Shown here in pieces: positions 8,276 through 32,336 of a stretch of DNA of 64,000 bases. This DNA comes from Candidatus Omnitrophota bacterium (GTDB taxonomy: Bacteria > Omnitrophota > Gorgyraeia > Zapsychrales > Zapsychraceae). Each line of letters opens with the position of its first letter. Position 1 is the first letter of the stretch. A program made the position numbers and the translations under genes. Where the stretch lies: NCBI GenBank assembly GCA_015232535.1, contig JADFZM010000001.1, positions 35,263-99,262 on the forward strand. The letters run 5' to 3'. Below the pieces are notes generated by a model. The model was not told the DNA's origin, did no database searches, and saw only the letters and a list, made by a program, of their open reading frames with translations.

Positions 8276-8325
8276 TTTTATTAAATTGTTGAAATCGTTT
8301 ATATTGTTAAGCTGTTTGATCAAGG

Positions 8326-9483: not shown

Positions 9484-10970
9484 GATTTGATCAATCCGGC
9501 AACCGTATGTTCTTTTGCCGAATGTATCTGCCTTATCCCGATTTTCTTGAGCATCCCGGTTGTGACAGGGCCGATAGAATAAAACGGGGTCTCTTCGGTT
9601 AAGGAGCCGTTTATATTGCTTGGAATATTGGCAAAGAATGTTTTAACTGATTTAGGGCTTAAAAAGAATATTCCGTCGGACTTCTTGGCGAGGGCCTTGG
9701 CTATCCTTGTTTTATCGGGCTGCCCTTCAATGTTATACACTGTGCAATCGGTTAGCTTAGCCCCGGCTCTAATTAAAATTCCTTTTAGATAATCGCGGTC
9801 AAGGCTTGTGCGTAAAAGAGCGATATTTTTATCATTAATACCTTTATTTCTCAGAGCTATGGCTAAATTCCTGGTGGTGAACTTATCCGGCATAAGCGCC
9901 GGGTTTATACCGAATTTTATGAATTCTCCCGCTGTTCCTGACCCGACGCAAGCAATCCTTCCTTTTAGCAGGGTTTTATTTCTGTTTAATGCAAAAAATC
10001 TCTTCAGAAAATAATATACGCCGTGTCGGGAGGTAAAAACAAGCCAGTCAAAGGCCTTAATATCGGCGATTATGTTATCAAGGTATGATGTGTCCTTATT
10101 TGGAACGACTTTTATCATCGGTAGTCGTTCAACCTTAGCGCCTAATGATTCTAACCCGAGGGAAATATCATTGTTTAATGTTTCGCTGGCTGTTGAGATA
10201 AAACTTTTGTTTGAAAGAGGTTTTAAGTTAGGATTCAGGCGGTAAGCAAGCTTAACCGTATCGCCTATAACACAGATAGCCGGAGCTTTTAAATCAGCGG
10301 ATTTATTGGCGATCCGAGCTAAATTAGACATAACAACTTTTTCTTTATCCGTCGTGCCACTTTGAATGACAGCGGACGGAGTTTTAGGGTCTTTACCGAA
10401 GGCGATGAGTTTATCGGTTATTGATTTAAGGTTAGATAATCCCATCATGATTACTAGAGTTCCCGAGAAATTGGCGGCGTGTTTCCAGTTTATGCTTTCT
10501 TTTTCTTTAGACGGGTCTTCGTGGCCGGTTAAAACCATAAAACCGCTTGAAACGCCACGGAAAGTGAGAGGTATCCCGCACACTTCGGGAACAGAATAAA
10601 AAGAGCTTACTCCCGGAATAACTTCGCAATCAATATTGTTTTCTCTTAAAAACAGCATTTCTTCCTGGCCGCGGCCGAAAATAAAAGGATCGCCGCCTTT
10701 AACTCTGGCGACTGTCTTGCCTTTTGAGGCAAAAGATAGGATGGTTTGGTTTATCTTTTCTTGATCTATCGATCGTCCCTTTTCTTTTCCTACAAATTTT
10801 AAGATTGCGGATGGCTTGGCATATTTTAATATGTCTTTGGAAATAAGCCGGTCGAAAAGGATAACGTCTGATTTCTTCAGGCATTCAACGGCTTTGAGGG
10901 TTAAAAGCTTAGGGTCCCCCGGTCCTGAGCCGATCAAATAAACTTTTCCATTTTTTATTTTATTATTCAT
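9462..10970 (-). CDS. cobA: Uroporphyrinogen-III C-methyltransferase fused to uroporphyrinogen-III synthase
   Basis: N-terminal half has the SUMT signature (VYLIGSGPGDPKLLTLKA ... VARVKGGDPFIFGRGQEE); C-terminal half is HemD-like (AFDWLVFTSRHGV). Confidence 0.88.
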   Translation of the reverse strand: MNNKIKNGKVYLIGSGPGDPKLLTLKAVECLKKSDVILFDRLISKDILKYAKPSAILKFVGKEKGRSIDQEKINQTILSFASKGKTVARVKGGDPFIFGRGQEEMLFLRENNIDCEVIPGVSSFYSVPEVCGIPLTFRGVSSGFMVLTGHEDPSKEKESINWKHAANFSGTLVIMMGLSNLKSITDKLIAFGKDPKTPSAVIQSGTTDKEKVVMSNLARIANKSADLKAPAICVIGDTVKLAYRLNPNLKPLSNKSFISTASETLNNDISLGLESLGAKVERLPMIKVVPNKDTSYLDNIIADIKAFDWLVFTSRHGVYYFLKRFFALNRNKTLLKGRIACVGSGTAGEFIKFGINPALMPDKFTTRNLAIALRNKGINDKNIALLRTSLDRDYLKGILIRAGAKLTDCTVYNIEGQPDKTRIAKALAKKSDGIFFLSPKSVKTFFANIPSNINGSLTEETPFYSIGPVTTGMLKKIGIRQIHSAKEHTVAGLIKSCLENSL

Positions 10971-11862
10971 TAATCTTTTTCAACTGTATCTTTAAACTGG
11001 CGATTAAATTGTCTGTAATTCCTGAGGCATTGTCTTTCGCCCCTTTTTCACTTTCCTTTATGAAACATTTTGCTTTTTCGCTGTAATATTTCGCGTTTAT
11101 TGAAAAGTTGCCTTTAATAAATTTGGCATAAACACCGAACGGTGTCCGGCAACCTATTCCTAAAGCTTTCAATACATTTCTCTCTAAAAGAGCGGATTTC
11201 TCCGTTTCAATACAAGAGCTTTTTCTAAGAATACTGTTTAAATCCTTATCGTTATCCCTTGTTTGAGCGCAAATTATGCCTTGCCCGGCCGCAGGGACAA
11301 AGCTTTCGCTGTCGAAATACCGGACGATCAAGTTTTCATATCCTAATCGTTTCAAACCGCAAGCAGCCAATATAAGCCCGTCGTATTTGCCCCCGTTCAT
11401 CTTTCTGATGCGGGTATCGATATTCCCTCTTATGGGCAATACAATCGCTTTGGGCTCGATTTCTTGTATAAAGTACATCCGACGCGGGCTGTCTGTGCCG
11501 AGCTTCAAACCCGCGAGTTGGCCCGATTTTAAACCATCGCGCAGTACCAGGCAATCTCTTCGGTCTTCTCTTTTGGCGAAACAGGACAACTTAGTGCCTT
11601 TTTGAAGTTTCACCGGGACATCTTTTAAACTATGCACGGCGCAATCAATTTCTTTATTTATAAGTGCTCGCTCGATTTCTTTTGTGAAAATGCCTGTTCC
11701 GATAGCCGTAATCTTATTTTTGCGGTCCCGGTCGCCTTGGGTCAGGATAGTTTTTATCCGGTAATCAAGGTTTACATTCTTTCTTTTTAAAAAGGCTATG
11801 AATTCAAAGAGCTGTTTATTCGCTAAAGCGCTTTTCCTTATACCAAAGATTATTCTGCGCAT
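10963..11862 (-). CDS. hemC: Hydroxymethylbilane synthase (porphobilinogen deaminase)
   Basis: KTILTQGDRDRKNKITAIGTGIFTKEIERALINKEIDCAVHSLKDVP motif block. Confidence 0.9.
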   Translation of the reverse strand: MRRIIFGIRKSALANKQLFEFIAFLKRKNVNLDYRIKTILTQGDRDRKNKITAIGTGIFTKEIERALINKEIDCAVHSLKDVPVKLQKGTKLSCFAKREDRRDCLVLRDGLKSGQLAGLKLGTDSPRRMYFIQEIEPKAIVLPIRGNIDTRIRKMNGGKYDGLILAACGLKRLGYENLIVRYFDSESFVPAAGQGIICAQTRDNDKDLNSILRKSSCIETEKSALLERNVLKALGIGCRTPFGVYAKFIKGNFSINAKYYSEKAKCFIKESEKGAKDNASGITDNLIASLKIQLKKINE

Positions 11863-12905
11863 AAAAGTAACGAAGGAAGTACGCCTGTGTTCTTTTTCTG
11901 ATCGAGGTACATTTCCCTTCGGATTATCTCCTCCGCTTTGTTCGCTTCGATCGAGCGGCTATAGAGTGTTCTATCAATTACCGGCGATAAGTCATCGATA
12001 TTGTATAGCTTTACACCGGCAATATTCCTAACCGCTTCCTCAACATTTCGAGGCACGCCAAGATCGACGAAAATAATTCTTTTATGACGGCCGTGCAATA
12101 TCGCGCTCACCATATCTTTGCTGATAATATGAGGAGCGGCAGTGGCGGCGACAACTATATCTGAAAGCGCGATTTCTTTTGCTATCTTTGAGAAATCGGT
12201 AACGCGCACGTTAAGCTTAACTGCGGCGTTTTTGGCTTTTGCTATATCGCGGTTTGTAACAACGATTTCCTTAAGGGGAAGCTCGGATAGTTTCTTTGTT
12301 GTCATAACGCCTATTTTCCCGGCGCCGATTACAAGAATTCTTTTATTCGATAAATCCTGTTCCTTTTTAATAAGGTCGACAACAACTCCGGATATCGAGG
12401 TAACTCCGCGGGATATGCCGGTCAAGCTGCGAACTTTCTTCCCTATGCGCAGGGAATCCTGAATAGTTTTATGCAGTATAGAGCCTATTGCCTTTGATGA
12501 ATCGGCTTTTTCATAGGCCTTTTTGATCTGGCCGAGGATCTGGTTTTCTCCTAAAACCATTGAGTCCAGGCCGCTCGCCACCCGGTTAAGGTGTATGACC
12601 GCCTCTTCGTTGGTTTTATTGTAGAAGTAATGCTCAATATAACTTTGCGGTAATTTATGCGTGCGGCAGATAAAATTTGTCAGCTTAGCGGTAATTTTAG
12701 AAATGCTTTCTCCTACGGCATATATCTCGACCCGGTTACATGTTGAGAGCATCAAAGCCTCTTCTATATCCAAATTGGATGATAGTTCGCGGTAATATTT
12801 ACTCAGCGATTTATCCTCAAAGCTGAATTTTTCGCGTATTTCTAGCGGGGCCTTTTTGTGGTTTGTCCCGATAAGAACAATATTTAAGTTATTGCTGATA
12901 GGCAT
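11850..12905 (-). CDS. hemA: Glutamyl-tRNA reductase
   Basis: LSTCNRVEIY catalytic Cys motif; NADP-binding LVIGAGKIG. Confidence 0.9.
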   Translation of the reverse strand: MPISNNLNIVLIGTNHKKAPLEIREKFSFEDKSLSKYYRELSSNLDIEEALMLSTCNRVEIYAVGESISKITAKLTNFICRTHKLPQSYIEHYFYNKTNEEAVIHLNRVASGLDSMVLGENQILGQIKKAYEKADSSKAIGSILHKTIQDSLRIGKKVRSLTGISRGVTSISGVVVDLIKKEQDLSNKRILVIGAGKIGVMTTKKLSELPLKEIVVTNRDIAKAKNAAVKLNVRVTDFSKIAKEIALSDIVVAATAAPHIISKDMVSAILHGRHKRIIFVDLGVPRNVEEAVRNIAGVKLYNIDDLSPVIDRTLYSRSIEANKAEEIIRREMYLDQKKNTGVLPSLLLCAE

Positions 12906-13677
12906 GATGGCTTACCATAAACAGGCTTACGCCGAAGAAAGTTGTTAACATGGCTAAAAATCCCACAACCGAGATGACCGATAGCCAAAAGTGTTTAAGT
13001 TTAAATGCTTTTTCCAGGATCACAGCCAAAGCGTAAATTATAAGGGTGATTAGCGCCCAGGTCTCTTTTGGGTCCCAGTTCCAATAAGTTCCCCAGGCTG
13101 TATGCGCCCAAATCGAGCCGGTCGCTATGCCGAAGAATAAAAGTATTACTCCGAAAATAATAAGGCCGCTATTCAAAGGCTGAAGGCCTTTTGTGTCTTT
13201 GCCCCTTTTCTCGGCGATTATCGAATAAACGCTTATAGCAAAAGAAATCCCAAAGGCGCTGTAACTTAAAATAATTGCCGGAACGTGTATTCCCAGCCAA
13301 AAACTTTTTAAGAGCGGGTTAAGCGGTTGGATTGTTTTATCCAGCGTTAGGTCGTATATTAAGATAATATCAAACAATAAAAACGCCAATCCCTGTATGA
13401 TCTTCCCGGTATTTTCTTTGATAAAAATGATATAGACAGCGCTTAAAAGCCAGGCGTAAAAATAAGTGATCTCAAAAAGCGAGACCATTGGCAGATGCCC
13501 CTGTTCGCGGTACCTTATAATAAGGTAAAAGAAACCGGCGGTTAAAGCGACTATCAGCCATTGCTTTGAGTAAGTGAAAAAAACGGGCTGCTTTTTGGAA
13601 ACGAAAAGAAGATACAAAACAGTCCCGATCAGATAAAAGAATGCGGATGTATAGAAAAATAATATGTTATATTGCAT
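12889..13677 (-). CDS. CcsA/HemX-family cytochrome c assembly membrane protein
   Basis: Polytopic membrane protein with Trp-rich WWD motif (WAHTAWGTYWNWDPKETWALI) and conserved His residues; it occupies the hemX position of the hem operon. Confidence 0.78.
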   Translation of the reverse strand: MQYNILFFYTSAFFYLIGTVLYLLFVSKKQPVFFTYSKQWLIVALTAGFFYLIIRYREQGHLPMVSLFEITYFYAWLLSAVYIIFIKENTGKIIQGLAFLLFDIILIYDLTLDKTIQPLNPLLKSFWLGIHVPAIILSYSAFGISFAISVYSIIAEKRGKDTKGLQPLNSGLIIFGVILLFFGIATGSIWAHTAWGTYWNWDPKETWALITLIIYALAVILEKAFKLKHFWLSVISVVGFLAMLTTFFGVSLFMVSHHAYQQ

Positions 13678-14122
13678 TAGCTAGTTTATCCCTAATTGCT
13701 TTTGCTTTTGCCGGGCTTTGGCCGTTTGTAGAAATACCTATGGTCAGCCCTTTTCTTTTTAATATTGCCGGCATTATTATTGAGCCCGGCCCGCTTTTAT
13801 CTACTACATTGACTAAGGTATTCGCTTTATTAGCGTCGGATAATACTTTCTTATTGACTTTAGCGTTATCTGTTGCCGCTACTATCAATTTATATTTCTT
13901 TAATGAAATATTCTTAGGATAAAGGGATTTTATGCATTTTATCTTCCCTTTTGACCTTAAACGTTCAATCGGCGCGATTATTTCCGGGCTGATACAGGTA
14001 ATTTTTGCCCCGAAATTTCTGAAGACCGATATTTTCCTATAAGCTACTTTTCCTCCGCCGACGACCAAACAATTTTCGCCTTTTACCTTGAGGCATACCG
14101 GCATATAGCTGCATAATTTCAT
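13667..14122 (-). CDS. Precorrin-2 dehydrogenase / sirohydrochlorin ferrochelatase (SirC/CysG N-domain type)
   Basis: Rossmann GGGKVA motif (CLVVGGGKVAYRKI); about 150 aa; first gene of the heme operon. Confidence 0.78.
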   Translation of the reverse strand: MKLCSYMPVCLKVKGENCLVVGGGKVAYRKISVFRNFGAKITCISPEIIAPIERLRSKGKIKCIKSLYPKNISLKKYKLIVAATDNAKVNKKVLSDANKANTLVNVVDKSGPGSIIMPAILKRKGLTIGISTNGQSPAKAKAIRDKLANAI

Positions 14123-14132
14123 GTCAGTTAAT

Positions 14133-15323
14133 TTACCTCTTTTTTAAAATAATATGACAAACATTACATTTCCCGCGGTATTCATGCGGGGAAACAGCTC
14201 CTTTTAATATAGGAGGAGGATTAGGCAAAATATCTCCCGCATCAGTCGGCAGCTGTCCTCCTGTTTTCATAATAATATGACAGGCGGTACAAGGCTTATT
14301 ACGGCTTCTGTGCGGGCTAAGAGCTCCGGGTGTTATCGGTTGAGCGGCCTCGTTTTGTGAAAACCCTAAACTTCTTTTTGATGAAATAGTATATTCGATG
14401 ATTTGCCCTCTGCGGGAAACTATAACCTTAGCCTTAAACCTGTTTTTTACCATTCTGGTTGCTTCAGTAAAAGCAACTAAATCCGGGGTGGCTATCTTTT
14501 CAATTCCAACAACCATATCTCCGGCCAAAACTCCCGATTCAGCCGCCTCGAGAGATATCTCATCGATCAACAACCCCTTTGTATTCGGCGGGATATTGAA
14601 TTCCGTGGCTAACTCAGGCGTAAGGGGAATAAGCTCCATACCGAGCCAATGCCCTTCGATAAGTTCTTTCGATGCCGCCCCTTGCTCTTTAGGAGTAGGC
14701 AGCTGCAAATTAGGGTCAACCGGAGCCGCATTCATTGTGCCGGCTTCGGCTGTTTCTGCCGGAGAATTATTGGCAAAAGCGATTTGATGAGCCGCAGGAT
14801 CGGCATTGTTTTGCTGTTGGGGTTTAGCTTCTAAGGGTACAGAGTTAGAATCCCCGGGAGCGTTTTTACCCGTAACGCCCATATCAAGGTTAAAAACGCG
14901 CTTGATATTGTCATGAATGCCTAATTTGTTTTCCAGGGTTATATAAAGCGGCTGGCCGTTTCTTAATATATCTAAAAGAGCGCCTTGGTCCAAGCTTGTA
15001 TCTTTCGTAACCTTTAGAAAGTCGGATATTTTCTTTGTTTTCTTATTATTGATCGATTTTATAAGGTCTCCGCTGCGTACACCCGAACTGTAAGCCGGAT
15101 CCTCACACCAATTTACAACAACCCCAGCTTCATCTTTCGGTATATAAAATTCCATGGCATTAGCCGGTGTGATATCGCTTACCGACATTCCGGCCCACTC
15201 TGCCTCACCTGCCCCGATGTGCATCAGCGCCGCGAGAAAAATAAGGCCTATCAAGCAAACGGATAATATAAGGAAGAACCTTTGCTTGTTTTTATGTTTA
15301 TATTCGGCTAAGATGTTAGGCAT
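14133..15323 (-). CDS. Membrane-anchored PDZ-PDZ protein with two C-terminal CxxCH heme motifs of magnetochrome type (MamP / MamE-Cter-like)
   Basis: N-terminal TM, two PDZ-like segments (GVRSGDLIKSI; GVLAGDMVVGIEKI), then SPHRSRNKPCTACHIIM and SPHEYRGKCNVCHIIL. Confidence 0.6.
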   Translation of the reverse strand: MPNILAEYKHKNKQRFFLILSVCLIGLIFLAALMHIGAGEAEWAGMSVSDITPANAMEFYIPKDEAGVVVNWCEDPAYSSGVRSGDLIKSINNKKTKKISDFLKVTKDTSLDQGALLDILRNGQPLYITLENKLGIHDNIKRVFNLDMGVTGKNAPGDSNSVPLEAKPQQQNNADPAAHQIAFANNSPAETAEAGTMNAAPVDPNLQLPTPKEQGAASKELIEGHWLGMELIPLTPELATEFNIPPNTKGLLIDEISLEAAESGVLAGDMVVGIEKIATPDLVAFTEATRMVKNRFKAKVIVSRRGQIIEYTISSKRSLGFSQNEAAQPITPGALSPHRSRNKPCTACHIIMKTGGQLPTDAGDILPNPPPILKGAVSPHEYRGKCNVCHIILKKR

Positions 15324-15335
15324 AATTAATTATTT

Positions 15336-15611
15336 TTAGTCTTTTTTGATGGAGGCTTTTTCTTCTGGTTTTAACTCGATCCGCTCAATTGCCGTATTAC
15401 AATCTTTACAGACCCAAAGTTGTCTTTTAGACCCGGTCATGTATAAGCCCATAATGAGTAAGGGTATCCCCAGAACCGGACCGATGAAAAAAAGCGATGA
15501 AAATACACCGCCAACTATTAATACTCCTCCGAATTTACGGCTGTGGCGCGGCCCGGAATAAGGCTGCATTTCTCCGTTACACAAATTACAAATAAGCGAT
15601 TTATCAGACAT
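15336..15611 (-). CDS. Small membrane protein with split zinc-ribbon (CxxC ... CxxC) flanking a TM hairpin
   Basis: CNLCNGEM at N-terminus, hydrophobic core, CKDCNTAI at C-terminus; 91 aa. Confidence 0.45.
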   Translation of the reverse strand: MSDKSLICNLCNGEMQPYSGPRHSRKFGGVLIVGGVFSSLFFIGPVLGIPLLIMGLYMTGSKRQLWVCKDCNTAIERIELKPEEKASIKKD

Positions 15612-15630
15612 TGATTCCCTTTCTAAGTGG

Positions 15631-15816
15631 CTACTTAATAAGATCGTTAATGGCTTTTTCCTTGCTTTCGTCTATTTCCGTGTCATTTGCGGTATCGCAG
15701 GTGTCTTTTTTATCTTTGGAGCAACAAGATGAATTTGATTTTTTGCATACGCTTGAGGTGATTGCTCCGGCGACTAAACCTAATAAAATAAGGGCTGCGA
15801 ATGATAATGGTTCCAT
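15631..15816 (-). CDS. Small Leu/Gly-rich TM peptide with acidic Cys-rich C-terminal tail (Mms6-like architecture)
   Basis: FAALILLGLVAGAI helix followed by CKKSNSSCCSKDKKDTCDTANDTEIDESKE. Confidence 0.4.
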   Translation of the reverse strand: MEPLSFAALILLGLVAGAITSSVCKKSNSSCCSKDKKDTCDTANDTEIDESKEKAINDLIK

Positions 15817-15878
15817 TTTTCCTCCGTTATTAGTTTGTTTTAAACAATATCAACAATTTTTCAAGAACAAAAAAATTA

Positions 15879-17411
15879 TTATCTGGGTTTCTTACCGATT
15901 CCGACTTTAACCGAGCTTGGTGCTTGCTGTTGCGTTGTATTCCCCATTATCTGATGACAATTTGAGCAGACTCCCCTATATTCGTGCGTCATTGCAGCAT
16001 TAGGCGAAATAGGCGGCGCTGTTACTTGCACTTGTTGAGCTGCCTGAGCTACCGGAGCAAAGCCCTGATTATTGAAGTTTTGCTGGGCATTATATTGATT
16101 CGGGTAATAAGCACCTCCACGGGCCATGATCTGTTTGCAGTTAGGGCAACGGGGAAATTCATTGGCGCCGTTTTGTGAATACATCCTCCAATTGCAATTT
16201 GGACAAAGGAAATAACCGAGCGATTCCTGTCCTTGCCAGAAGTTTGGCTGGTTAACAGTCGGATTCGCTTGCATTTGGTTTTGCATTTGATTCGGCATTT
16301 GATTTGCCGCTAATTCCGGCAATTGCGGCCAACCGTTATTTGCCATATCTTTTGCCATCTGTGATCCGCAATTCGGGCAATTAGGATAACCATTGCCTGT
16401 GTTGGCAGCTTTTAATCTCCAGTTGCAAGAGGGACAAACAAATGGCTGTTCTCCCCACCCAAATGCAACTTGTGTCCCCGGGTTGAGTTTATTCATTGTA
16501 TCAGGATCGGGTAAATTCATCCCTTGTACCATTGCCCCTTGCATCCATCCCTGGCGCGGAAGCGGACAGACCGGACGCATTACATTCATATTCTGCATCC
16601 CCCATCCTGCATTCATCGCATCCGGCATCAATTGTCCGGCGGTAGGATATACTTGCCCGATAGGATTCATATCCTGAATTCCGAACGCTACACCCTGCCC
16701 GGGAATTTGCTGTTGCATTCTCAAGCGGCAATTGGGGCAAATCGGGCATATGTTAGAGTTGTTATTTCCGGCTTGCTGAAACTTACAATTGGGGCAGTAA
16801 AACATACAGCCCCCTCCCTGTCCTTGGCCGGCAAAACCGGCTTGGGCTACGGGCATACTATTCGCTTGCATTTGGCCTGGATTAATGGGTAATGAAGCTT
16901 GGCCGATCCTTGCCTGACGGTAAAGGTTAATTACTTTCTTGGTCGAGCCCGTATACCCGCCGAAAACTCGAATTCCGAATTGCATCAGAATATTATAACT
17001 TTGCGGGTCGATATTTCCGACAATAACCGCTTCCTCTCCTTTTCCCGCCACCAGATAAGCGATTTGCGGGTTAGGAACAGTGCCGTAATAAAGGTTCGGG
17101 ATCGCCTCCTCGAGTTTCTTTGTAAGAGGGTTTATTACTAAGAAGAATTTGGCTTGCTGCAATGAAGGCGCGACATTCGAATTAAAAGTGGAATTATCAG
17201 CGGCAACAACGATTTTTCCGCAAGCCGGATTACCTTGATTTTTAGACTTAATGTCAGGTGAGAATATGGCGTATACGCCAATAAGTAAAACAAGGATAAT
17301 AGAGGCAAAGATAAAATATGTGTTCATATCCATATCCTTTACCCTGGCTTTAAAATCCTCAACGGTTATCGTAGGGATTTTGCTTGTTTTGGCTTTCATA
17401 TTCTTTATCAT
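15879..17411 (-). CDS. Chimeric membrane protein: TM anchor, NifX/NifB-C-like (Nitro_FeMo-Co-type) domain, Gln/Asn/Met-rich region with three CPxC...CPNC knuckle pairs, and a C-terminal magnetochrome-type CxxCH
   Basis: FFLVINPLTKKLEEAIPNLYYG ... AYLVAGKGEEAVIVGNIDPQSYNILMQFGIRVFGG; CPNC/CPSC pairs spaced 11-13 aa; THEYRGVCSNCHQIM near the C-terminus. Confidence 0.6.
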   Translation of the reverse strand: MIKNMKAKTSKIPTITVEDFKARVKDMDMNTYFIFASIILVLLIGVYAIFSPDIKSKNQGNPACGKIVVAADNSTFNSNVAPSLQQAKFFLVINPLTKKLEEAIPNLYYGTVPNPQIAYLVAGKGEEAVIVGNIDPQSYNILMQFGIRVFGGYTGSTKKVINLYRQARIGQASLPINPGQMQANSMPVAQAGFAGQGQGGGCMFYCPNCKFQQAGNNNSNICPICPNCRLRMQQQIPGQGVAFGIQDMNPIGQVYPTAGQLMPDAMNAGWGMQNMNVMRPVCPLPRQGWMQGAMVQGMNLPDPDTMNKLNPGTQVAFGWGEQPFVCPSCNWRLKAANTGNGYPNCPNCGSQMAKDMANNGWPQLPELAANQMPNQMQNQMQANPTVNQPNFWQGQESLGYFLCPNCNWRMYSQNGANEFPRCPNCKQIMARGGAYYPNQYNAQQNFNNQGFAPVAQAAQQVQVTAPPISPNAAMTHEYRGVCSNCHQIMGNTTQQQAPSSVKVGIGKKPR

Positions 17412-17448
17412 GTCCTATCCTTCAGTTAATATTGTTGAATTTGTTTAA

Positions 17449-18036
17449 TCATTTTAACATCGGCGAATAAGGTATAGCCGGACCGAAGACCGGAGAACCG
17501 AGCTGCCAGCTACCTTTATTTGTGCCCATTAAAGGCCCGTATTGATAATCGAAGGGAATTGTTATGAATATCTTCTTCCCATCGCGATATACATCCAGGA
17601 AAATACCTCCGGAGTATTTCACATTATTAGCCAGGTCGGCAAAATCCTGGGCGGATTTTATAGGTTTTTGTCCGATGGAAACTATCACATCCCCTGATTT
17701 AATCCCGTACTTTTGAGCAGGGCCAAGGCCTTCGTCCAGTACAAGCACCCCTTTTATCTTTTTTGGAATTTTGAATTCTTTCCTTAAACTGCGGGAAAGA
17801 TATATCACATTCATACCGATCCAGTTCATACTATCGCCTGGTTCGATCAGAGTATTTTTAACGGCAGTTGTCGGTTCGGTTCGTTCAGGCGCTTCGGGAA
17901 TAATTTCTAAAGATGATAATATCCAGCAGAAGGCTATAATAGAGAAGATAACAATACCGACAAACATTACCGGTTCCTTTTTCGCGAATTCCTTAACCTT
18001 GATTTTAAAATTATTGAATTCTTTATTTTTTTTCAT
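17449..18036 (-). CDS. Membrane-anchored PDZ domain protein
   Basis: N-terminal TM, PDZ core (KGVLVLDEGLGPAQKYGIKSGDVIVSIGQKPIKSAQDFADL). Confidence 0.7.
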   Translation of the reverse strand: MKKNKEFNNFKIKVKEFAKKEPVMFVGIVIFSIIAFCWILSSLEIIPEAPERTEPTTAVKNTLIEPGDSMNWIGMNVIYLSRSLRKEFKIPKKIKGVLVLDEGLGPAQKYGIKSGDVIVSIGQKPIKSAQDFADLANNVKYSGGIFLDVYRDGKKIFITIPFDYQYGPLMGTNKGSWQLGSPVFGPAIPYSPMLK

Positions 18037-18039
18037 AGT

Positions 18040-19467
18040 TTATTGTATTTTTACCAGAATTTCGTCTGTTTTGCCGTTTCTTAATATTCTAACGTTTACC
18101 CCGTCTCCGCTTTTAAAGTGCGCGACTACATTCCTTATATCCTCGGCTGATTTAATTGGTACACCGGCTATAGCGACAACTATATCTCCCCTTTGTATCC
18201 CGGCGAAACTAGCCGGCGATTCGTCCAATACCCTATTTACCAAAACCCCTTTCCACGGAGATATTTTGAATTGCCGCGCGATTATCTCGTTTATAGGCAT
18301 AACTTCTAATCCGAAACGTACCGGAAGCGGCGCTCCGGGCGCGGGATTGGTTGTGGGCAAAGCCGCGGCCAGCATACCTTTTCTATCAACCGGAAGAGGG
18401 AAATTTCTTTTTAAAGCCTTTCCTAAGAAATCTTTGCAATCATTTATCGGAATAGCGAAACCTGTGCCGCTAAAAACACCGGTCGGAGCGTAAATTGCCG
18501 TATTAATGCCGATGACATCTCCGTTTAAGTCAACCAGCGGCCCACCCGATGAGCCGCGATTTATAGGAGCATCGGTTTGGAATAAATTTTGGTAACGGAT
18601 TCCTTCAATCAAGATCGATTTTCTTATCCCGCTAATGATACCGCTGGTGACGGTTTGCTCTATCCCGAAGGGGCTTCCAACGGCAACAACGTAATCGCCT
18701 ATTTGGCTGAAACTGGAATCGCCTAATTTTACCTCGGGGAACGGGCCGTCCGCTCTTAATTTTACGAGCGCTAAATCTAAATTCGGTTCCTCCGCTACGA
18801 TGTCTGCCCTTATATCGCGGGAGGGATTGCCAAAGACCGTAACTATAATATCGGTCGCGTCTTTTGTTACGTGATAATTAGTGAGCACGTAGCCGCGTTC
18901 ATCGATCACAATCCCTGCTCCGACATTTTCGTAACCTTTATTCTCGATGAATTTATCAATGGCACCGTCGAAGGGCGGAACAAATTGCATGTTTTGCGCA
19001 TCGGCAGGTTTCCTTATGTTCGTTCGAACAACCCTGATCGCGTGTATATCGCATACGGAAGGAATTATGGCGTTTACAGCATCTTTTAATGAATTTTGAA
19101 ACTTGCTATCGGTATTCGCGACTAACTGCATACCGCCGTTAGGAGTAGCTTTAGTTATTGCCGCGACTTTATAATTGGAAGACGGATTTTGATTTGGCTG
19201 ATAAGGAACACCTCCGTTAGGAAGAGCTTGGGTTATCGCCTGTGCCTGAGTATAGGCTGCTTGAGTGACCGGGGACGGAAATTGGGGCTCTCCTGCCTTT
19301 GGCATCTTGATTTTTGCCCTGGTATTTACAGTTTCGGTCTCAATTCCCTGGTTTATGTCTTCATGCCGCATTATTACCCAGAAAAGGAGCATAACCCCGA
19401 CTACGGCAAGCGCCGCAATCCAGGGCCCGAGAGGCTTTGTGCAAAATGAATCGTTAGGGTCTTCCAT
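18040..19467 (-). CDS. HtrA/DegP-family trypsin-like serine protease with C-terminal PDZ and N-terminal TM anchor (MamE-like)
   Basis: Intact catalytic triad: LTNYHV (His), DLALVKL (Asp), NRGSSGGPLVD (Ser); PDZ GIQRGDIVVAIAGVPI; no CxxCH in this polypeptide. Confidence 0.85.
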   Translation of the reverse strand: MEDPNDSFCTKPLGPWIAALAVVGVMLLFWVIMRHEDINQGIETETVNTRAKIKMPKAGEPQFPSPVTQAAYTQAQAITQALPNGGVPYQPNQNPSSNYKVAAITKATPNGGMQLVANTDSKFQNSLKDAVNAIIPSVCDIHAIRVVRTNIRKPADAQNMQFVPPFDGAIDKFIENKGYENVGAGIVIDERGYVLTNYHVTKDATDIIVTVFGNPSRDIRADIVAEEPNLDLALVKLRADGPFPEVKLGDSSFSQIGDYVVAVGSPFGIEQTVTSGIISGIRKSILIEGIRYQNLFQTDAPINRGSSGGPLVDLNGDVIGINTAIYAPTGVFSGTGFAIPINDCKDFLGKALKRNFPLPVDRKGMLAAALPTTNPAPGAPLPVRFGLEVMPINEIIARQFKISPWKGVLVNRVLDESPASFAGIQRGDIVVAIAGVPIKSAEDIRNVVAHFKSGDGVNVRILRNGKTDEILVKIQ

Positions 19468-19492
19468 TTTGGTAATGATTATCTCCTAATAA

Positions 19493-19714
19493 TTAAAAAG
19501 TAAACTTTCCTGCTTCAACCGGCATTTCAGCGCCTGGAACCGGATAGGCTATAGGTGTCGCTGATGTATGCGAAGTTGCTCTTTTGTGTTTCCTGCCTTG
19601 GCCGGGATTATTGCGAAATTCATAAAATATCGCGGTTGAAATAATCACGCACACGGTAAAAATTATCAAGAACCCAACCCAAGGGTTTAGGCATTTTTCC
19701 CTGTTGACTATCAT
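19493..19714 (-). CDS. Small single-TM protein with basic His/Arg/Lys tail
   Basis: WVGFLIIFTVCVIISTAIFY helix then GRKHKRATSHTSA; 73 aa. Confidence 0.35.
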   Translation of the reverse strand: MIVNREKCLNPWVGFLIIFTVCVIISTAIFYEFRNNPGQGRKHKRATSHTSATPIAYPVPGAEMPVEAGKFTF

Positions 19715-19729
19715 AGTAATTTCCCCGGA

Positions 19730-19900
19730 TTACTTCTTGTCTTTTAATAATTTTAACCCGGTGTTCAAGGCGATCAGTCCTCCGACCAGAAGGGCTAATG
19801 GTATGAAGCCTCTTAAAAAGTCGCCGAAATTATCCCACCATCCGATGATTCCCATTAATCCGAGTACCGCCGCTATTGCCCCACCGATAACATGTGCCAT
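19730..19900 (-). CDS. Unannotated 56 aa two-helix membrane protein, MamI-like (below the ORF-track cutoff)
   Basis: Translation MAHVIGGAIAAVLGLMGIIGWWDNFGDFLRGFIPLALLVGGLIALNTGLKLLKDKK; strong RBS AAAGGAG 7 nt upstream of the ATG (rev-comp of 19898-19900); stop TAA at 19730-19732. Confidence 0.5.
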   Translation of the reverse strand: MAHVIGGAIAAVLGLMGIIGWWDNFGDFLRGFIPLALLVGGLIALNTGLKLLKDKK

Positions 19901-19956
19901 TTCTACTCCTTTCGTTTAATATCAATGACTTTTGAAAACTTTTAAAATTTTTAAGA

Positions 19957-20265
19957 CTATCCGTTCTTAAAACGGACTCCGAAGCCGCCTCTGGGATTTT
20001 CCCATTTGATCGCGCCATCCGTACATATAACCCGACAACTTCCACATTCTAAACAATTTTCGTAGGCAACTTCTATTGTCCCATGATTCTCTTCGTATGA
20101 TTTGGCCGGGCACACAATAAGGCAAGCTTTGTGCTGGCATTTCTTGCATATTTTCTTATTTATCGTAATATGGCTTATCTTATCCTTTTTGTTTTTTACC
20201 AAAAAAAGCTTATCTTCAATGGATAATTTCTTGTTCTGCTTGTTTTCTTGTTCTAAGGTTTTCAT
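19957..20265 (-). CDS. fixX: FixX-type ferredoxin-like protein
   Basis: C-terminus [32 protein letters not shown] matches the FixX family. The start at MKTLEQ gives an ATGA overlap with the fixC stop; the ORF-track start at 20289 is also possible. Confidence 0.78.
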
Positions 20266-21578
20266 ATTAAATTGCTCCATGCTCCCCACATTTCACGGGC
20301 TAAGCGGGTAAATTTCACGTTTTTCTTTACTTTCCTAAAAATCTCTTTCTTAACGGCGGTCTTAGGCTTCTCAGAAACCCGGAAATAATCGACTAAAATA
20401 TCGTTCATTAAAGTAGGATAATCATTGATCAGCGACTTATTTTTGTGCAGGAATGAGAGGAAGTTCTTGCAGTTCTTAATGTCTTGCAAGACAAAGCTAT
20501 CTTTGAGCTTTTCTTCGTAAAGGGATAAAGTTTGCGAAGAAAAATCGTTTTTACGGCGCGCCTCCATGATAGTATCGGCCGCATATATTCCGGAGGCCAT
20601 CGCTAAGTTTACTCCTTCATGGAAGAAAGATGTGTTGAGTAATCCGGCCGCATCCCCAATTACTAGAAGCCCGTCGCGATAAAGCTTTGGCAAAGAGTCA
20701 AATCCGTCGGAGGGTATCATATGCGCCATGTATTCGACAATTTCAGCGCCTTTCAATAAAGGAGCGATCGAAGGATGGGATTTAAAATCCTCCAAAATAT
20801 CATTGGGGTTTTTTCCGTTTCTGTTTTTTATAAAGTCGCTAAGCGAAAAACCGACTCCCACCGAAAGGCTGTCTTTATTCGTGTAAATAAAACCGTTTCC
20901 TAAAAGGCCTTGAACTGCTTCGCCGAAATATTCAAATGCCGCGCCCTGCCTTCCGGCCAGGCCGAAACGGTCTTCAATAACATTTTGGGGTAGGCGCATA
21001 TTTTCTTTAATCGCGATGGAGCGGCGTTCGGGGTCGATTTTCTTTCGAAGCTTGGCTTTTTCGGTGAGTATAGAATTCGCGCCTTCGGCACAGACAATCA
21101 TATCCGCCAAAAGATTATCTTCATCTCCCGAGCCGCTTGTTATACCGACAATCTTGCCTTTTTCGTAAAGAAAATCACTAACACAATAATCGGTTATGAT
21201 GCTTACTCCGGCCCCTTCGGCTTTTTTGGCCAGCCATCCGTCCATTGTTCCGCGCAAGGTAATAAAGGAGTGATTGTAAGGCTTCTCATTAAAGGCGCTG
21301 GGCATCATGTCAAAGGCTAATTCGCTTTTCCCGGCTAAAATAGAGAATTTTCTTTTTCCCACGAATCTTTCCCATGGGGCTTCATCAAAAAATTCCGGAA
21401 AGATTTTTTCCATGATGCTGGAAAAGAAAATGCCACCGAACATATTTTTAGCTCCGGGGTATTCTCCCCTTTCTATAACTACGACTTCCGCGCCTCTTTT
21501 GGCAAGGGAATAAGCGCAGGTAAGGCCCGCTGGCCCAGCCCCGACAATTATCACCTCAACTTTATCATTTTGGCTCAT
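20262..21578 (-). CDS. fixC: FixC-type FAD-dependent oxidoreductase (ETF-quinone oxidoreductase family)
   Basis: N-terminal FAD fold [32 protein letters not shown]; [28 protein letters not shown] ... VIGDAAG block typical of FixC. Confidence 0.85.
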
Positions 21579-22150
21579 AACAAGAATTTATTTAAAGGTA
21601 CTTTAGCGATCCTGTTTTTTAATGAAGCAAAATATTTCCCCGATATAAACAATCCCTTCTTAAGTTTTCCTCCTAAGTCGGCGCTTTCATCTTTTAGAAT
21701 ATGGCTATCGGTTTTTATAATTGTATCTTGTTTAGCATTTTGTATTTCATGGTATTCTTTTGGAAAGTACACCTTAAGATAACCGCATTTTGGGCAGTCA
21801 ATACCGCACTCTACTTTAAGGCCCGCATACTCTCTTAAGCTCAAGAAACAACGGTTTATCTTTTCTTTATATACAAGGCAATCATTGCAATTGTGCTTAT
21901 TTGATCCAAGGCTCTCCTTTGCTTCCCAGCAAGGTATGATTTTAACCTGCGGCTTGATGTTGTTTTTGATGCGGTTCTTGAAACTTTTTTTACTAAGCAA
22001 AGATACTATGCTTTCTTTAGGGATCCTTTGATGCCCGCCAAGCGTGGAGACGGCTTTAATTTTCCCTTGTTTTATCCAGTGCAGAACGCTAAAGCGGCTG
22101 ACGTGAAGTATTTTAGAGGCCTGAGTGGTAGTAAGATATTCTGGCTGCAT
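21575..22150 (-). CDS. Excisionase/MerR-type HTH DNA-binding protein with Cys-rich C-terminal domain (putative metal/redox-responsive regulator)
   Basis: TTTQASKILHVSRFSVLHWIKQGKIKAVSTLGGHQRIPKESIV HTH; then CNDC ... CGIDCPKCG cysteine pairs; first gene after a 667 bp AT-rich leader. Confidence 0.6.
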   Translation of the reverse strand: MQPEYLTTTQASKILHVSRFSVLHWIKQGKIKAVSTLGGHQRIPKESIVSLLSKKSFKNRIKNNIKPQVKIIPCWEAKESLGSNKHNCNDCLVYKEKINRCFLSLREYAGLKVECGIDCPKCGYLKVYFPKEYHEIQNAKQDTIIKTDSHILKDESADLGGKLKKGLFISGKYFASLKNRIAKVPLNKFLL

Positions 22151-22817
22151 TAAATTTATATATAATTAGTTAAAATTGCGATAAATAAGATGCGTGAATT
22201 ATAACAACCATATAAAAATTTATCAAGAAATATTTTTCTCTTCAAAAACTTTTTAGTTGTTGAAATTGTTGATGTTAAGCGCCTAAAATAGGATTAAAAA
22301 TACGTCGGAGTGATGAAATTTTATCTAATGTTAAGCGGTTTATTCTAATTGTCGCATGTTTTTACGCGTTTCTATAAAAGGTAATATTTAGATATTAAAA
22401 ACCTATTTCTCATTAAAATTAGCTATCCTTATTTGTTCTAATTCGTTTATTCACTTAAATTGAGTAAAATTGAGAAGTTTTTAATTATTTTATTGAAGCA
22501 TAAAACAACTGAATTGGGAATACTGAAAAATTGGCTTTAAATGTAGTGTAACACTGTAGGAAGCGAAACAAAGCATAATATTTTCCTGTAGCAGATAGTT
22601 TGTACATGGTTATTAGATATGATAAGACAATGAGTGTAACTTAATAGAGTCATTCAAATGAAAGTTGGAACATGGCAAGAATATCTAGCTGTTGCTTATT
22701 CAAATGGCAGCGTCATATTAAATAAAGTAGTTTGAATATGTTGGTTTTCCGCATCTCAAGTATAATATAAATTGTTGAAATTGTTTAATCTTTGATATAT
22801 TTGTCGACGGAATTGAA
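22151..22817 (-). promoter_or_regulatory. Long AT-rich intergenic leader/promoter region carrying two copies of the ATTGTTGAAATTGTT-type motif
   Basis: 667 bp without credible ORF; motif copies at 22254-22278 and 22768-22790; TATAAT-like hexamers present. Confidence 0.4.
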
Positions 22818-25800
22818 TTAAGGGCAGTGTTTTCTGATAGAATCCCTGAGTTGCCTTAACTGGATGGGTTTAGCCAAGAGATCATTCATTCCTGAGTCAA
22901 AGCATTTTTGCTCGTCCATTCTTACTATTTCGGCCGTTAAGGCTATTATAGGCAAAGTTTTGTTGATATTATTACGGATAAATATAGTTGCTTCTATGCC
23001 ATCCATCTCCGGCATTTGAATATCCATAAAGCATATATCATAAGTCCCGGTCTTCACCTTTTCCACCGCTTCCCTGCCGTTAGTTGCATAATCCCCAATG
23101 CATTCCAAAGTATCTAGGTATGCCTTCATAAGCTCCTGATTTGTGATACTGTCATCCACAACAAGAACTTTCTTACCGGTGCAGGTTAGTTCATTCGCAA
23201 GATGCCGGGTAATAATTCCTTCATCTGTTCGCTTATCACCTAAAACAGTAGCGATAAGCTTTATTAGTTCATTTTCGATTATTGGTTTCGGCAAATAACC
23301 GTTAAATCCTGAGGATTTCGCGTCTTCGGCAGAGCCGATGCGCAAGTCAGATGTTAAAGCGATTATTTTTAAGCTATTAAATTGACCTAATTTTCTTATT
23401 TGTCTTGCCAGTTCGTAACCGTCATTGTCCGGCATCATAATATCGGTCAAAACCAAATCGATCTTAAATGGTTCATCTTTTATGGCATTGATAAAAGAAA
23501 TAGCATCCTCAACCGATGTTGCTGATTTAACAACTTCAATCCCGGCGTTTTGGCAATAAGTATTTACCAATTCCAGAGATTTTAAGTTATCATCAACAAT
23601 AACGGCTTTTTTCCCTTTAAGTTCTTTTATGCTAAGCGGCAAAATATCGTTATTAAATGATTCATCGGCTTGCTTAAAAGTCAATCTGATAAAGAATTCA
23701 CTGCCTTGTCCCAAGACAGATTCGGCCCAAACAGAGCCTCCCATTATTTTGACAAGCGAGCGCACAATGGCTAAGCCTAAACCGGTCCCTCCGAATTTAC
23801 GGGTGGTTGAAGTATCGGCTTGTTCAAAGGCATCAAATATCGTCTTTGTCTTGTCTTCAGGAATTCCTATCCCTGTATCTTTAACGCTTAATTTTAAAGT
23901 GATTTCGCCATTTTCTGTATTTCGGCTTTCTTCGCGAACGATAATGCCGACACTTCCGGCTTTTGTGAATTTAGCGGCATTAGTAAGAAGGTTTACAAAA
24001 ATCTGGCGTAATCTCGTAGGGTCGCCTTTAAGGAGGCAATTTAATTCTCGGGGAATATCAATATATGAGTCTAACAATTGTTCGCTCATTTTCGGTAATA
24101 TCAGGTGGAAAACATCTTTAATTAAGTAACGCAGGTCAAAATTAATGTTCTCCAGCTTTATCTTTTCCGATTCTATTTTGGAAAAGTTTAATATATCTTC
24201 GATTATGGCCAAAAGAAGTTCTCCTCCCGAGCGTATAGATTGGAGATAATGCCTTTGTTTTTCATCGATTGACGTCCTAGTCAAAAGGTCAGTAAAGCCG
24301 ATTATCGCGTTCATTGGGGTGCGGATTTCATGGCTCATATTTGCCAAGAATTCGGTCTTGGCTTTGGCTAATTTCTCGGACTTTTTGCTCGCCTCTTCAT
24401 ATTTGTCCCGGAGCGTTTCAGCTGTTTCCAGCGATTTCAGAAGATCATCATTTGCTTTCTTTAAAAGATTCTCCGATTTCTTTCTTTCCGATATATCACG
24501 TAAAATACCCACAGCCTGCCATTCCCCTGATAGGAATACCGAAGATAAGGAGAGGTCAACCGGTATTTCAGTGCCGTCTTTTTTAATGGCGGATAACTCA
24601 AGAGTTTTTCCTATGGCGAAACCTTTGCCGGAATTTTGCCATTGGGGAAAGGCCGCTTTATGCGCTTCATGAAATCGGGATGGAGATAATATTTCATGTA
24701 AAGGCTTGCCGATTATCTCATCTGGCTTATAACCTAAGATTTTTTCTCCGGCCGGATTCCAGAAGGAAACCAGGCCTTTATTATCCATCATTATAATCGC
24801 GTCTTGAGCTGAATCGGTTATAGAACGTATCCTCATCGAGCTTTCTTTTAACAGCTCTTCGTCTTTCTTCCTTTGGGTGATATTTTTTGCGATATGCACA
24901 GTCCCAATCACTTCTCCTTTGTCATCGAATATCGGAGAAACGTTTACTTCCAAAAACGCGTTTAATCTAGGTTCGAATATTTCCGAGGTGTTATGTGATT
25001 TATTTTCTAACGTTCTTACGTGCGGGCAAGCTGAATGTGGGTTTTCCAGCCCGTGAACTAAAACGTGGCATTTCTTGCCGATTACTTCTTTTGGCGTAAG
25101 ATTAAAGGCATCGGCATAAGCTTTGTTTACCCGTAGCAATCTGCATTCCTTATCCTGAATCGAAATCATATCCTGAATTGAGTTAAAGGTTTCTTCCCAT
25201 TCCCTGGATATTTTCTTAAGGCTTTTCTCCGCGAGCTGCCGGGAAGCGATTTCGGCATTTAAATTATTAATGGAGGTAACCGAATCTTTGAGGTCATTAG
25301 CCATTTTATTAAAAGCGCGGGATATTTGGCCAATCTCATCATTTGAATCGACTTTTATTTGATTGAAGAGCATTCCTGATGAGATTACCTCAATTCCCCG
25401 TTTTAGCTTTTGAAGTTGATTTGTAATTATTTTCCCCAAGAAAATACCGACGGCTAAAGCGGCAAAAGGTATAACCAAAAGGATCAAAAGTAAAATAAGC
25501 TGTATCTTTCTAAGCGGAGCAAAAGCTTCGCTTGTGTCGATCTCGGCTAAAAGGCACCATTTCATTTGCGTGTTCCACACATGGGTGCCTAAGGTCATGA
25601 CCCCGCGGTAATCTTCAGCAATAATTAGGCCTTCATGTTTATCATGAGAGTTTTTAAAAGTTGTTTCATGATCTTTATCCAAATCGGCCAAACATTGCCT
25701 AAAATTCGCGGTATTGACTTTTTGCTTTAGAAAAGCGCCTTTAATAAACCGCGAATTGCTTATCATGTAACCGTATTTATTTACTAAATAAGTTTCCCCC

Positions 25801-26405: not shown

Positions 26406-26421
26406 TTTTACTTCTAATGAC

Positions 26422-27423: not shown

Positions 27424-27434
27424 AGCTGTCCTGT

Positions 27435-27791
27435 TTATAAAGGTAATTCGGAAAAGTTTTTTGTTAACAAAGAAAAAAGCTCCTTTATTTCTTCAATCTT
27501 TTCTTGTTTTTTTGAAAGTTCATTTATTTGCATTGCCGGTTTGGAAATTGAGTCCAGGATCATATTGGCGAAGCTTCCCTTCATCCGGTGAGAGATAGTC
27601 TGAATTTTGGGGAAATCAACCTTGGCTATCGCTTCTTCTAAAGCCGAAATGTCTTTTTTTCCCTCGACGAGGCACAGCTTGGCTATTTTCAGGTAAGCTT
27701 GCGGAGGTATTTGAAGTTGGTTGCTATTTTTTATTACCAGCTGTTCATAATCATTTTTATTTGTGTAATTATTTTTTGTCTCATCGTTCAT
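27435..27791 (-). CDS. Histidine phosphotransfer (Hpt) domain protein
   Basis: ISHRMKGSFANM phospho-His motif in a 118 aa all-helical protein. Confidence 0.7.
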   Translation of the reverse strand: MNDETKNNYTNKNDYEQLVIKNSNQLQIPPQAYLKIAKLCLVEGKKDISALEEAIAKVDFPKIQTISHRMKGSFANMILDSISKPAMQINELSKKQEKIEEIKELFSLLTKNFSELPL

Positions 27792-32000: not shown

Positions 32001-32336
32001 TCAGCTTAGTTCTTTTAATGCGGTTTCACGATTATCATGGATTGAGATCATCTTATGCATTTTTGTTATTTCAAAAATGCCGCGGATTTCTTTGTTTACG
32101 TTGCAGATGTTGAATTTACCGTTAGCTTTTTTTAGCATTTGCGTCATTTCGATTAATGTTGCCAAGCCGGAACTGCCGACAAAGCCGACTTTCTCAAAAT
32201 CAACAATCACTTTGCTGGCACCGGCTTTAAGCAATTTAATAAACGAATCCCTTAGCTTTATGGAATCTTCAACGTTGAGCTCTCCGTCAAGCGCTACAAC
32301 ATTGATCCCGTTAATCAAATCAACTTTAATTTTCAC
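32001..32336 (-). CDS. STAS-domain anti-sigma-factor antagonist (RsbV/SpoIIAA-like)
   Basis: LDGELNVEDS ... VDFEKVGFVGSSGLATLIEM with phosphorylatable Ser. Confidence 0.85.
   Translation of the reverse strand: MKIKVDLINGINVVALDGELNVEDSIKLRDSFIKLLKAGASKVIVDFEKVGFVGSSGLATLIEMTQMLKKANGKFNICNVNKEIRGIFEITKMHKMISIHDNRETALKELS

Follow-up and report, generated by a model that had tools for sequence, protein, structure and literature searches.

MamP is an iron-oxidizing protein that combines a PDZ domain with a double magnetochrome, and the magnetosome gene cluster of Candidatus Omnitrophus magneticus SKK-01 was reportedly described by Kolinko et al. in 2016. Among the 168 genomes of magnetotactic bacteria (MTB) compiled by Lin et al. 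2020, 20 belong to Omnitrophota, and mam genes are found in every cluster identified there (PMC7602337). In Desulfovibrio (Solidesulfovibrio) magneticus RS-1, the protein FmpB (DMR_41100, also 'MamP*') has the architecture magnetochrome-PDZ-NifX and is encoded next to FmpA (DMR_41090, 'MamE-Cter'), a PDZ-only protein (PMC4287615). Here, we analyze a 64-kb stretch of DNA (the window) from the Omnitrophota metagenome-assembled genome (MAG) nHLH_bin2, in which a first-pass annotation, made from the letters alone, had recognized a candidate magnetosome-type gene cluster at positions 14133-22150. We conclude, with a probability of about 0.9, that this block is the upstream half of a genuine magnetosome gene cluster of a magnetotactic Omnitrophota bacterium.

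The genome nHLH_bin2 is itself a member of the Lin et al. 2020 set and is listed in Supplementary Table 2 of that study as Omnitrophota; koll11; UBA10015; kpj58rc, with a GC content of 42.78% (PMC7602337); the window lies on its largest scaffold (112,777 bp). Three large proteins of the window are identical to GenBank MBF0384287.1, MBF0384290.1 and MBF0384292.1 of a "Candidatus Omnitrophica bacterium" MAG, and a neighboring protein carries the locus tag HQL27_00380. Because the genome belongs to the 2020 magnetotactic set and the NCBI name for the 510-aa protein discussed below is already "magnetochrome domain-containing", the cluster was already known: its recognition was correct, and the cluster itself, from a genome published in 2020, is not new. 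The assignment thus brings nothing new and is of value as a clean positive control, a reader of raw sequence having correctly recognized a rare organelle gene cluster through a 20-residue motif. What might be new is limited to the 'long form' of the cluster, with nested heme and fixCX genes, and a rearranged FmpB-like protein. The domain plan of this protein, the nested heme/fixCX genes and the extra N-terminal PDZ domain of the MamP-like protein are unmentioned in the searchable literature.

Magnetochromes, core mam genes and conserved gene order

The genes on which the assignment is built are the following (aa, amino acids; TM, transmembrane).

14133-15323, minus strand: MamP-like protein, 396 aa, with a TM anchor, a PDZ domain (residues 42-130), a linker, a second PDZ domain (~218-310) and 2 magnetochromes carrying the motifs SPHRSRNKPCTACHIIM and SPHEYRGKCNVCHIIL (CxxCH sites at nt 14277-14291 and 14154-14168)
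15879-17411, minus strand: 510-aa protein with a TM helix (residues 29-50), a NifX-like domain (62-170), 3 Cys4 knuckles and 1 C-terminal magnetochrome carrying the motif THEYRGVCSNCHQIM (nt 15945-15989; CxxCH at 15954-15968)
18040-19467, minus strand: MamE-type HtrA protease, 475 aa, with an N-terminal TM anchor, a trypsin domain, 1 PDZ domain and no magnetochrome
19730-19900, minus strand: mamI, 56 aa, with 2 hydrophobic segments
2898-3788, minus strand: mamM, cation diffusion facilitator (CDF) transporter
1931-2884, minus strand: mamB, CDF transporter
844-1689, minus strand: mamA, tetratricopeptide repeat (TPR) protein
101-805, minus strand: mamQ, LemA family

The bare CxxCH signature is unremarkable in the window, with 4 occurrences in 6 frames against 3.8 expected from shuffles. 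The extended pattern H-x2-R-[GN]-x(1-2)-CxxCH-x-I, by contrast, occurs 3 times and was not found in any of 100 shuffles. All 3 matches fall inside real, long open reading frames (ORFs), on the minus strand and at the positions where the first-pass annotation had placed both the motifs and their ORFs, and no further CxxCH is present in any plausible gene of the window. In each of the 3 units, which span about 20-25 residues, CxxCH is preceded by a histidine, the second axial ligand, in a P-H-x-x-R-G context. The suggestion that these units are magnetochromes rather than merely generic cytochrome c was confirmed by the Pfam profile PF18509 (gathering cut-off 30.4 bits), which scored 53.2 bits over 2 stretches of the 396-aa protein and 36.9 bits over 1 stretch of the 510-aa protein. 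The heme motifs had been attributed to 2 adjacent membrane proteins; both proteins indeed carry them, but they are not strictly adjacent, as 2 small conserved ORFs intervene. Both have a Lys/Arg-rich N-terminus ahead of a single TM helix, and these positive-inside N-termini would place their domains on the lumenal or periplasmic side of the membrane, as attachment of heme c needs.

For the 396-aa protein, NCBIfam MamP is by far the best model (E = 7.5e-62, 209.6 bits). The expected relationship to MamP also holds at the level of the solved structure: residues 218-394 align to MamP of PDB 4JJ0 (E = 5.1e-37) across the PDZ domain and both hemes, with both CxxCH motifs and the upstream PH..RG residues matched residue by residue. 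The protein shares with the Magnetococcus-type MamP of MO-1 (PDB 4JJ0/4JJ3) a TM anchor, a PDZ domain, 2 magnetochromes and the aligned upstream His, Arg and Gly. It differs by a further PDZ domain at the N-terminus, a long linker rich in Q, P and A, and 1 more residue between His and Cys in its first magnetochrome.

The protease matches NCBIfam MamE (E = 5.4e-74, 249.9 bits), and alignment with DegP bears out the intact H-D-S triad and TM anchor ascribed to it, the His, Asp and Ser residues (TNYHV, LDLAL, GSSGGP) aligning with the DegP triad. Like MamE of Magnetospirillum, it is a membrane-anchored HtrA protein with an intact triad and a PDZ domain, encoded beside mamI. Unlike that protein, it has a single PDZ domain and no magnetochrome pair, and thereby lacks the alphaproteobacterial MamE plan (a magnetochrome pair plus 2 PDZ domains) and shows instead the split 'MamE-Nter' layout of deep-branching lineages. 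The proposed division of protease and magnetochrome functions between polypeptides is therefore real, a heme-free protease being encoded separately from the heme-bearing PDZ proteins, and the source organism belongs to one of the 3 phyla (Omnitrophota) that had been named for the likeness to deep-branching clusters.

Consistently, the window holds 7 of the 8 core genes (mamA, B, M, Q, E, I, P, K), all on one strand. MamP, MamE, MamI, MamB, MamM, MamA and MamQ are the best NCBIfam models of the respective proteins. The mamM product scores 249.9 bits (2.8e-74) with MamM vs. 189.7 with MamB, and the mamB product 239.5 bits (4.8e-71) with MamB vs. 208 with MamM; MamA is matched at 9e-36 (123.2 bits) and MamQ at 1.6e-28 (Pfam LemA, 96.7 bits). 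The 56-aa peptide described as MamI-like matches NCBIfam MamI (E = 3.4e-13, 49.2 bits), and its positional orthologues in 4 related loci (L103-L106) carry Pfam PF26391 MamI. The more distant CDF pair, TPR, LemA, actin-like and feoAB genes are likewise all present.

From the helix-turn-helix (HTH) gene HTH191 through mamQ, 27 co-oriented, tightly packed genes form an array in the order HTH, fixC, fixX, mamI, sp73, HtrA, PDZ195, 510-aa, sp61, sp91, mamP-like, 11 heme genes, lapA91, mamM, mamB, mamA, mamQ. No junction between HTH and mamB exceeds 62 nt, and many genes overlap. All proteins of the window were mapped onto 22 loci from species-representative genomes, 13 of them from Omnitrophota, and onto 4 further contigs; 1 Omnitrophota locus (L011) is too short for synteny, leaving 12 usable. 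A common gene order was found in these 12 loci and the 4 further contigs: HTH, mamI, sp73, HtrA, PDZ, NifX-magnetochrome, (sp61), sp91, mamP-like, lapA-like, mamM, mamB, mamA, mamQ, followed by further genes and then feoB. The closest homologues come from Omnitrophota MAGs of the 2020 MTB set, to which nHLH_bin2 itself belongs (PMC7602337). Unlike the other Omnitrophota clusters, the window and 6 relatives show fixCX ahead of mamI and, behind the mamP-like gene, a heme operon; extra kinase, Hpt and binding-protein genes of its own and an upstream Volactin pair further distinguish the window.

A probable rearranged counterpart of FmpA and FmpB

The second magnetochrome protein is encoded beside a PDZ-only protein.

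17449-18036, minus strand: PDZ195, TM-anchored single-PDZ protein analogous to FmpA/'MamE-Cter' (Pfam PDZ_2, 34.3 bits)
Residues ~200-238, 320-358 and 400-433 of the 510-aa protein: Cys4 knuckles (CPxC...CPNC) in Q/N/M/P-rich disordered linkers

PDZ195, noted as a further PDZ protein in the first-pass annotation, is present as described and is kept in all Omnitrophota loci. In an alignment of 33 orthologues of the 510-aa protein, the cysteines of 2 of the 3 knuckles and of the magnetochrome CxxCH are invariant, as is C64; within the heme unit, the invariant cysteines are C482 and C485, and H476, R479, G480 and H486 are conserved in at least 90%. The AlphaFold2 model is confident for the NifX-like domain (pLDDT >90 at residues 62-170) and gives pLDDT ~80-89 for the knuckles. 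In Foldseek, this domain reaches TM-scores of 0.70-0.79 with TM1816, the Desulfovibrio orange protein, TM1290, PH0822 and NafY; with NifX, the score is 0.58. When the NifX-like domain alone was searched against 1.8 billion proteins, orthologues came first, followed at 31-34% identity by proteins with 2-3 magnetochromes, PDZ and 2 NifX domains and, at the same tier, proteins of Desulfamplus MAGs with 2 PDZ and 2-3 NifX domains.

The 510-aa protein thus resembles FmpB in combining a magnetochrome and a NifX/NifB-type domain in one membrane protein encoded beside a PDZ-only protein. The order is reversed, however, with NifX at the N-terminus and the magnetochrome, single rather than paired, at the C-terminus; moreover, the chain has no PDZ domain and 3 Cys4 knuckles are inserted. 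The cysteine of the NPACG motif (C64), invariant in the 510-aa family, is specific to this Omnitrophota/Planctomycetota family; a sharing of Cys64 with FmpB-type domains was considered and rejected, as the residue is absent there on direct comparison. Since the nearest other NifX domains sit in magnetochrome-PDZ-NifX proteins, the architecture of FmpB, and the neighbor is PDZ-only, PDZ195 and the 510-aa protein together look like a rearranged FmpA/FmpB module, and the 510-aa protein is probably, by analogy, a functional counterpart of FmpB. The NifX-knuckle-magnetochrome protein thereby carries the FmpB theme from Desulfobacterota to Omnitrophota.

When the Mam literature is read onto what is directly observed here (domain identities, homology to solved MamP, synteny and provenance), a division of labor can be proposed. 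MamI, MamQ and MamB would help to build the magnetosome membrane, and MamB and MamM, together with FeoAB, would bring in iron. The HtrA protease would process and sort magnetosome proteins and mature them by proteolysis. Facing the lumen or periplasm, the membrane-anchored magnetochrome proteins may pass electrons to or from iron and so poise the Fe(II)/Fe(III) ratio for magnetite; the MamP-like protein is probably an iron oxidase, as MamP is. The 510-aa protein, coupling a NifX-type ligand- or cluster-binding domain and 3 Cys4 metal knuckles to 1 heme, could act as an FmpB-like auxiliary redox or metal-handling factor.

Long-form clusters and alternative explanations

Between the mamP-like gene and lapA91/mamM, the minus strand at 4060-14122 holds a complete siroheme-dependent heme-b operon, and 2 further genes are inserted between HTH191 and mamI. 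The heme-operon ORFs are given from the first possible start codon, and some of the listed starts are probably too far upstream.

13667-14122, minus strand: sirC-like
12889-13677, minus strand: ccsB/hemX-like
11850-12905, minus strand: hemA
10963-11862, minus strand: hemC
9462-10970, minus strand: cobA-hemD
8326-9483, minus strand: ahbC
7286-8395, minus strand: hemB
6297-7316, minus strand: ahbD
5833-6393, minus strand: ahbA
5358-5843, minus strand: ahbB
4060-5361, minus strand: hemL
20262-21578, minus strand: fixC-like, flavin adenine dinucleotide (FAD) oxidoreductase
19957-20289, minus strand: fixX-like ferredoxin

The 2 blocks are separate, clade-specific insertions, 8 kb apart, and the first-pass annotation missed both: fixCX lies inside its interval and the heme operon adjoins it. 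They co-vary perfectly, with 7 of 18 Omnitrophota loci having both, 11 neither and none only one. The long-form loci are the window, nDJH15_bin6, nDJH15_bin13, nDJH6_bin5, JADFYE (probably nDJH6_bin14), a Logan contig and nDJH6_bin13; in the 6 besides the window (L001, L002, L007, L103, L104 and L106), the heme block occupies the same position. All 4 long-form loci with a confirmed GTDB family, the window included, belong to kpj58rc, and L104, probably nDJH6_bin14, is hence probably of this family as well. Long-form loci do not form one clade: in a neighbor-joining tree of MamP and HtrA, their monophyly was rejected (0 of 500 bootstraps), and sister pairs of opposite form are well supported, L106 (long) with L105 (short) at 1.0 and L002 (long) with L010 (short, of the same GTDB family) at 0.95. 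The long form thus cannot be traced to one recent insertion. Across loci, the relative divergences of FixC and the heme proteins match those of the Mam proteins, and the blocks are therefore old passengers rather than recent accidents.

For the heme operon, a neutral rearrangement, in which a housekeeping operon landed in or beside the cluster with no functional tie to the magnetochromes, is the explanation toward which we lean slightly. The same type of heme operon is an ordinary housekeeping operon elsewhere; the same gene orders stand alone in unrelated metagenomic contigs with no mam neighbors, and the operon is absent from the 11 short-form clusters. The ccsB-like gene, moreover, takes the place that hemX usually has, and one long-form locus (L103) does not have it. 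When metagenomes were scanned with the ccsB/hemX-like protein, only remote relatives turned up (≤38% identity), none with mam neighbors, from which we take the operon type to be common. A dedicated role of the ccsB-like gene in cytochrome c maturation for the magnetochromes is unsupported, given its hemX position, typical of housekeeping operons, and its absence from L103. Several observations nevertheless speak against a purely neutral origin: the embedding is seamless, with a gap of +10 nt between the mamP-like gene and sirC and one of -4 nt between hemL and lapA91; the operon has been retained over long divergence, with parallel identity patterns; it constantly co-occurs with fixCX 8 kb away, including in the 2 well-supported sister pairs of opposite form; and no real ORF of the window has a CxxCH motif outside the 3 magnetochromes.

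The reading that ties these blocks to the organelle has 2 parts, namely that the magnetosome operon captured the heme-b operon and FixCX as a co-transcribed, co-selected module, and that the NifX/Cys4/magnetochrome protein is a lumenal multi-center electron relay specific to these bacteria. We consider the 2 parts together a tentative and rather doubtful proposition. The nested heme-b operon and fixCX are probably co-transcribed with the array, which would plausibly tie heme supply to magnetochrome production. If so, the genes that supply the magnetochrome cofactor would form part of the organelle's own cluster, and the 2 insertions would be gained and lost together because they work together. 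Heme synthesis has been reported in <75% of Omnitrophota genomes, and the co-variation of the heme block with fixCX hints at how small-genome organisms in a phylum with patchy heme synthesis secure the cofactor for biomineralization redox proteins. Heme genes in magnetosome clusters are not mentioned by Lin et al. (PMC7602337) or in the other literature searched, a limited body.

Several points weigh against the assignment of the whole cluster to magnetosome formation. Every Mam score lies below the curated NCBIfam equivalog cut-off: MamP reaches 209.6 bits of 300, MamI 49.2 of 80 and MamA 123.2 of 200, mamB and mamM, each best with its own model, both remain below 350, and the protease falls far short of the MamE cut-off of 800 while scoring higher, at 290 bits, with a generic DegP subfamily model. 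No mamK is present within the window. The organism is known here from its genes alone, through a MAG that is 73.6% complete, and the link of this MAG to magnetotaxis rests solely on its inclusion in the Lin et al. 2020 MTB set.

As an alternative, the cluster could be a silent or decaying remnant in an organism that has magnetosome genes and makes no magnetosomes. The 10 kb of unrelated genes splitting the cluster and the additional sensor-kinase genes inserted upstream would fit such decay, as would the in-frame TGA of a nearby VIT1 iron-transporter gene and the lack of a recorded phenotype. However, all mam ORFs are intact, with conserved catalytic and heme-binding residues, the long form is kept across lineages that differ by ~30% in MamP sequence, and the genome is part of the MTB genome set, so that we regard a remnant as very improbable. 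That the PDZ, CxxCH and HtrA proteins form a general periplasmic quality-control or redox module with no role in biomineralization, as the ubiquity of HtrA and PDZ domains and the better DegP score of the protease might suggest, is scarcely credible given heme units that fit the magnetochrome model and not generic cytochrome c, the homology to the MamP structure, the presence of mamI, mamM, mamB, mamA and mamQ in conserved synteny, and homologues essentially confined to magnetosome-cluster contexts.

Small cluster genes, regulators and flanking regions

The remaining genes of the array and its candidate promoter are the following.

15631-15816, minus strand: sp61, small TM protein whose tail is Cys-rich or charged, with a C-terminal EKEKAIxDLI
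19493-19714, minus strand: sp73, small single-TM protein after mamI
15336-15611, minus strand: sp91, with CxxC, 2 TM helices and a second CxxC
3788-4063, minus strand: lapA91, small LapA-domain-like membrane protein (Pfam LapA_dom, 23.3 bits, under cut-off)
21575-22150, minus strand: HTH191, HTH protein of the excisionase type whose C-terminus is rich in Cys (NCBIfam excisionase domain, 7.3e-9; MamR, 2.4e-4)
22198-22226, minus strand: sigma-70-like promoter match, TTGATA-17-TATAAT with an extended -10 TG, 48 nt upstream of HTH191

An acidic peptide had been proposed to be Mms6-like; this is sp61, and the label has no support, since no family, Mam and Mms models included, matched sp61 even at E up to 10. 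No Mam or Mms family was matched by the small ORFs of the cluster. It is nevertheless a real conserved gene, with the plan MEPxS, TM helix, variable Cys-rich or charged linker and EKEKAIxDLI, and positional orthologues of the same plan are present in 7 loci (L001, L002, L008, L009, L012, L013 and L014). For sp73, Pfam and NCBIfam profile scans gave no family match, and positional orthologues occur in most Omnitrophota loci. The sp91 gene precedes the mamP-like gene in all Omnitrophota loci, and copies with ~30% identity were observed in Hydrogenedentota and Sumerlaeia magnetosome clusters (L017, L018 and L020); it may be an unnamed, widely shared magnetosome gene. In short-form clusters, lapA91 directly follows the mamP-like gene.

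HTH191 is the first gene of the cluster, ahead of mamI, in all related Omnitrophota loci with long enough sequence and is duplicated in 2 of them (L008 and L014). It is a candidate regulator of the cluster; its similarity to MamR is only weak. The promoter match upstream of it agrees at 11 of 12 positions and is the top match in 19.5 kb, with the total count of sites at chance level; it is weakly suggestive of a promoter of the array. Counts of promoters and terminators were at chance level, and Rfam and tRNA scans of the window gave no matches.

Genes upstream of the array include those listed below.

28991-30196 and 30147-31181, minus strand: tandem, slightly overlapping Volactin-family actin-like genes (Pfam PF25216, 240 and 248 bits)
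36649-38760, minus strand: feoB
38757-38987 and 39020-39247, minus strand: 2 copies of feoA
39315-39749, minus strand: fur

The 2 actins had been taken for MamK-like proteins, an identification that did not hold: against NCBIfam MamK they score 18.3 and 24.3 bits (cut-off 400), and they belong to the Volactin family. Their phosphate-2 motifs, ISCGCG and VSCGGG, conform to SxGxG, with Ser instead of Asp, as given for Mad28 (PMC10653835), and by this motif the tandem actins appear Mad28-like. With Mad28 of deep-branching magnetotactic bacteria (PMC10653835, PMC12713370), compared by motif only, both share the actin fold and the Ser-type phosphate-2 motif; Pfam, in contrast, places both in Volactin (PF25216), and no listed relative is named Mad28 or MamK. 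The few named relatives come from Omnitrophota and Planctomycetota MAGs, and in the closest relative (L001) no such tandem pair stands at the corresponding place.

Between a conserved ion-channel gene and HTH191, the minus strand at 22818-27791 encodes a 1195-aa hybrid sensor kinase, a binding protein of the SsuA/NMT1 type and an Hpt protein; in the 3 relatives checked (L103, L104 and L106), this interval instead holds an ApbE flavin-transferase gene. Further upstream (32333-34763, minus strand) lie genes for a CHASE2-SpoIIE phosphatase and a HATPase_c_2 kinase of the anti-sigma type, which most relatives share at this side of the cluster; L103 and L104 also have a STAS protein, suggesting that a regulatory module of the partner-switching type is associated with the cluster. 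The surroundings are rich in metal-homeostasis genes, including fur (39315-39749), a gene for a ferritin-like protein (53675-54073) and one for a P-type cation ATPase (44994-47666), and a putative pstSCAB phosphate transporter at 40981-44481 is suggested by ORF sizes alone. The VIT1-family iron transporter gene (51300-51968, minus strand) contains a single in-frame TGA (…SSQFDTE*ADLARE…), which could reflect a pseudogene, a sequencing error or recoding. In the short-form locus L105, the region downstream of mamQ (9673-14801), the counterpart of which would lie past the left edge of the window, holds genes for a fusion of PDZ with an ArsB/CitMHS permease, for TauE, a PLDc_N peptide, a further PDZ protein and EcsC, followed by feoB.

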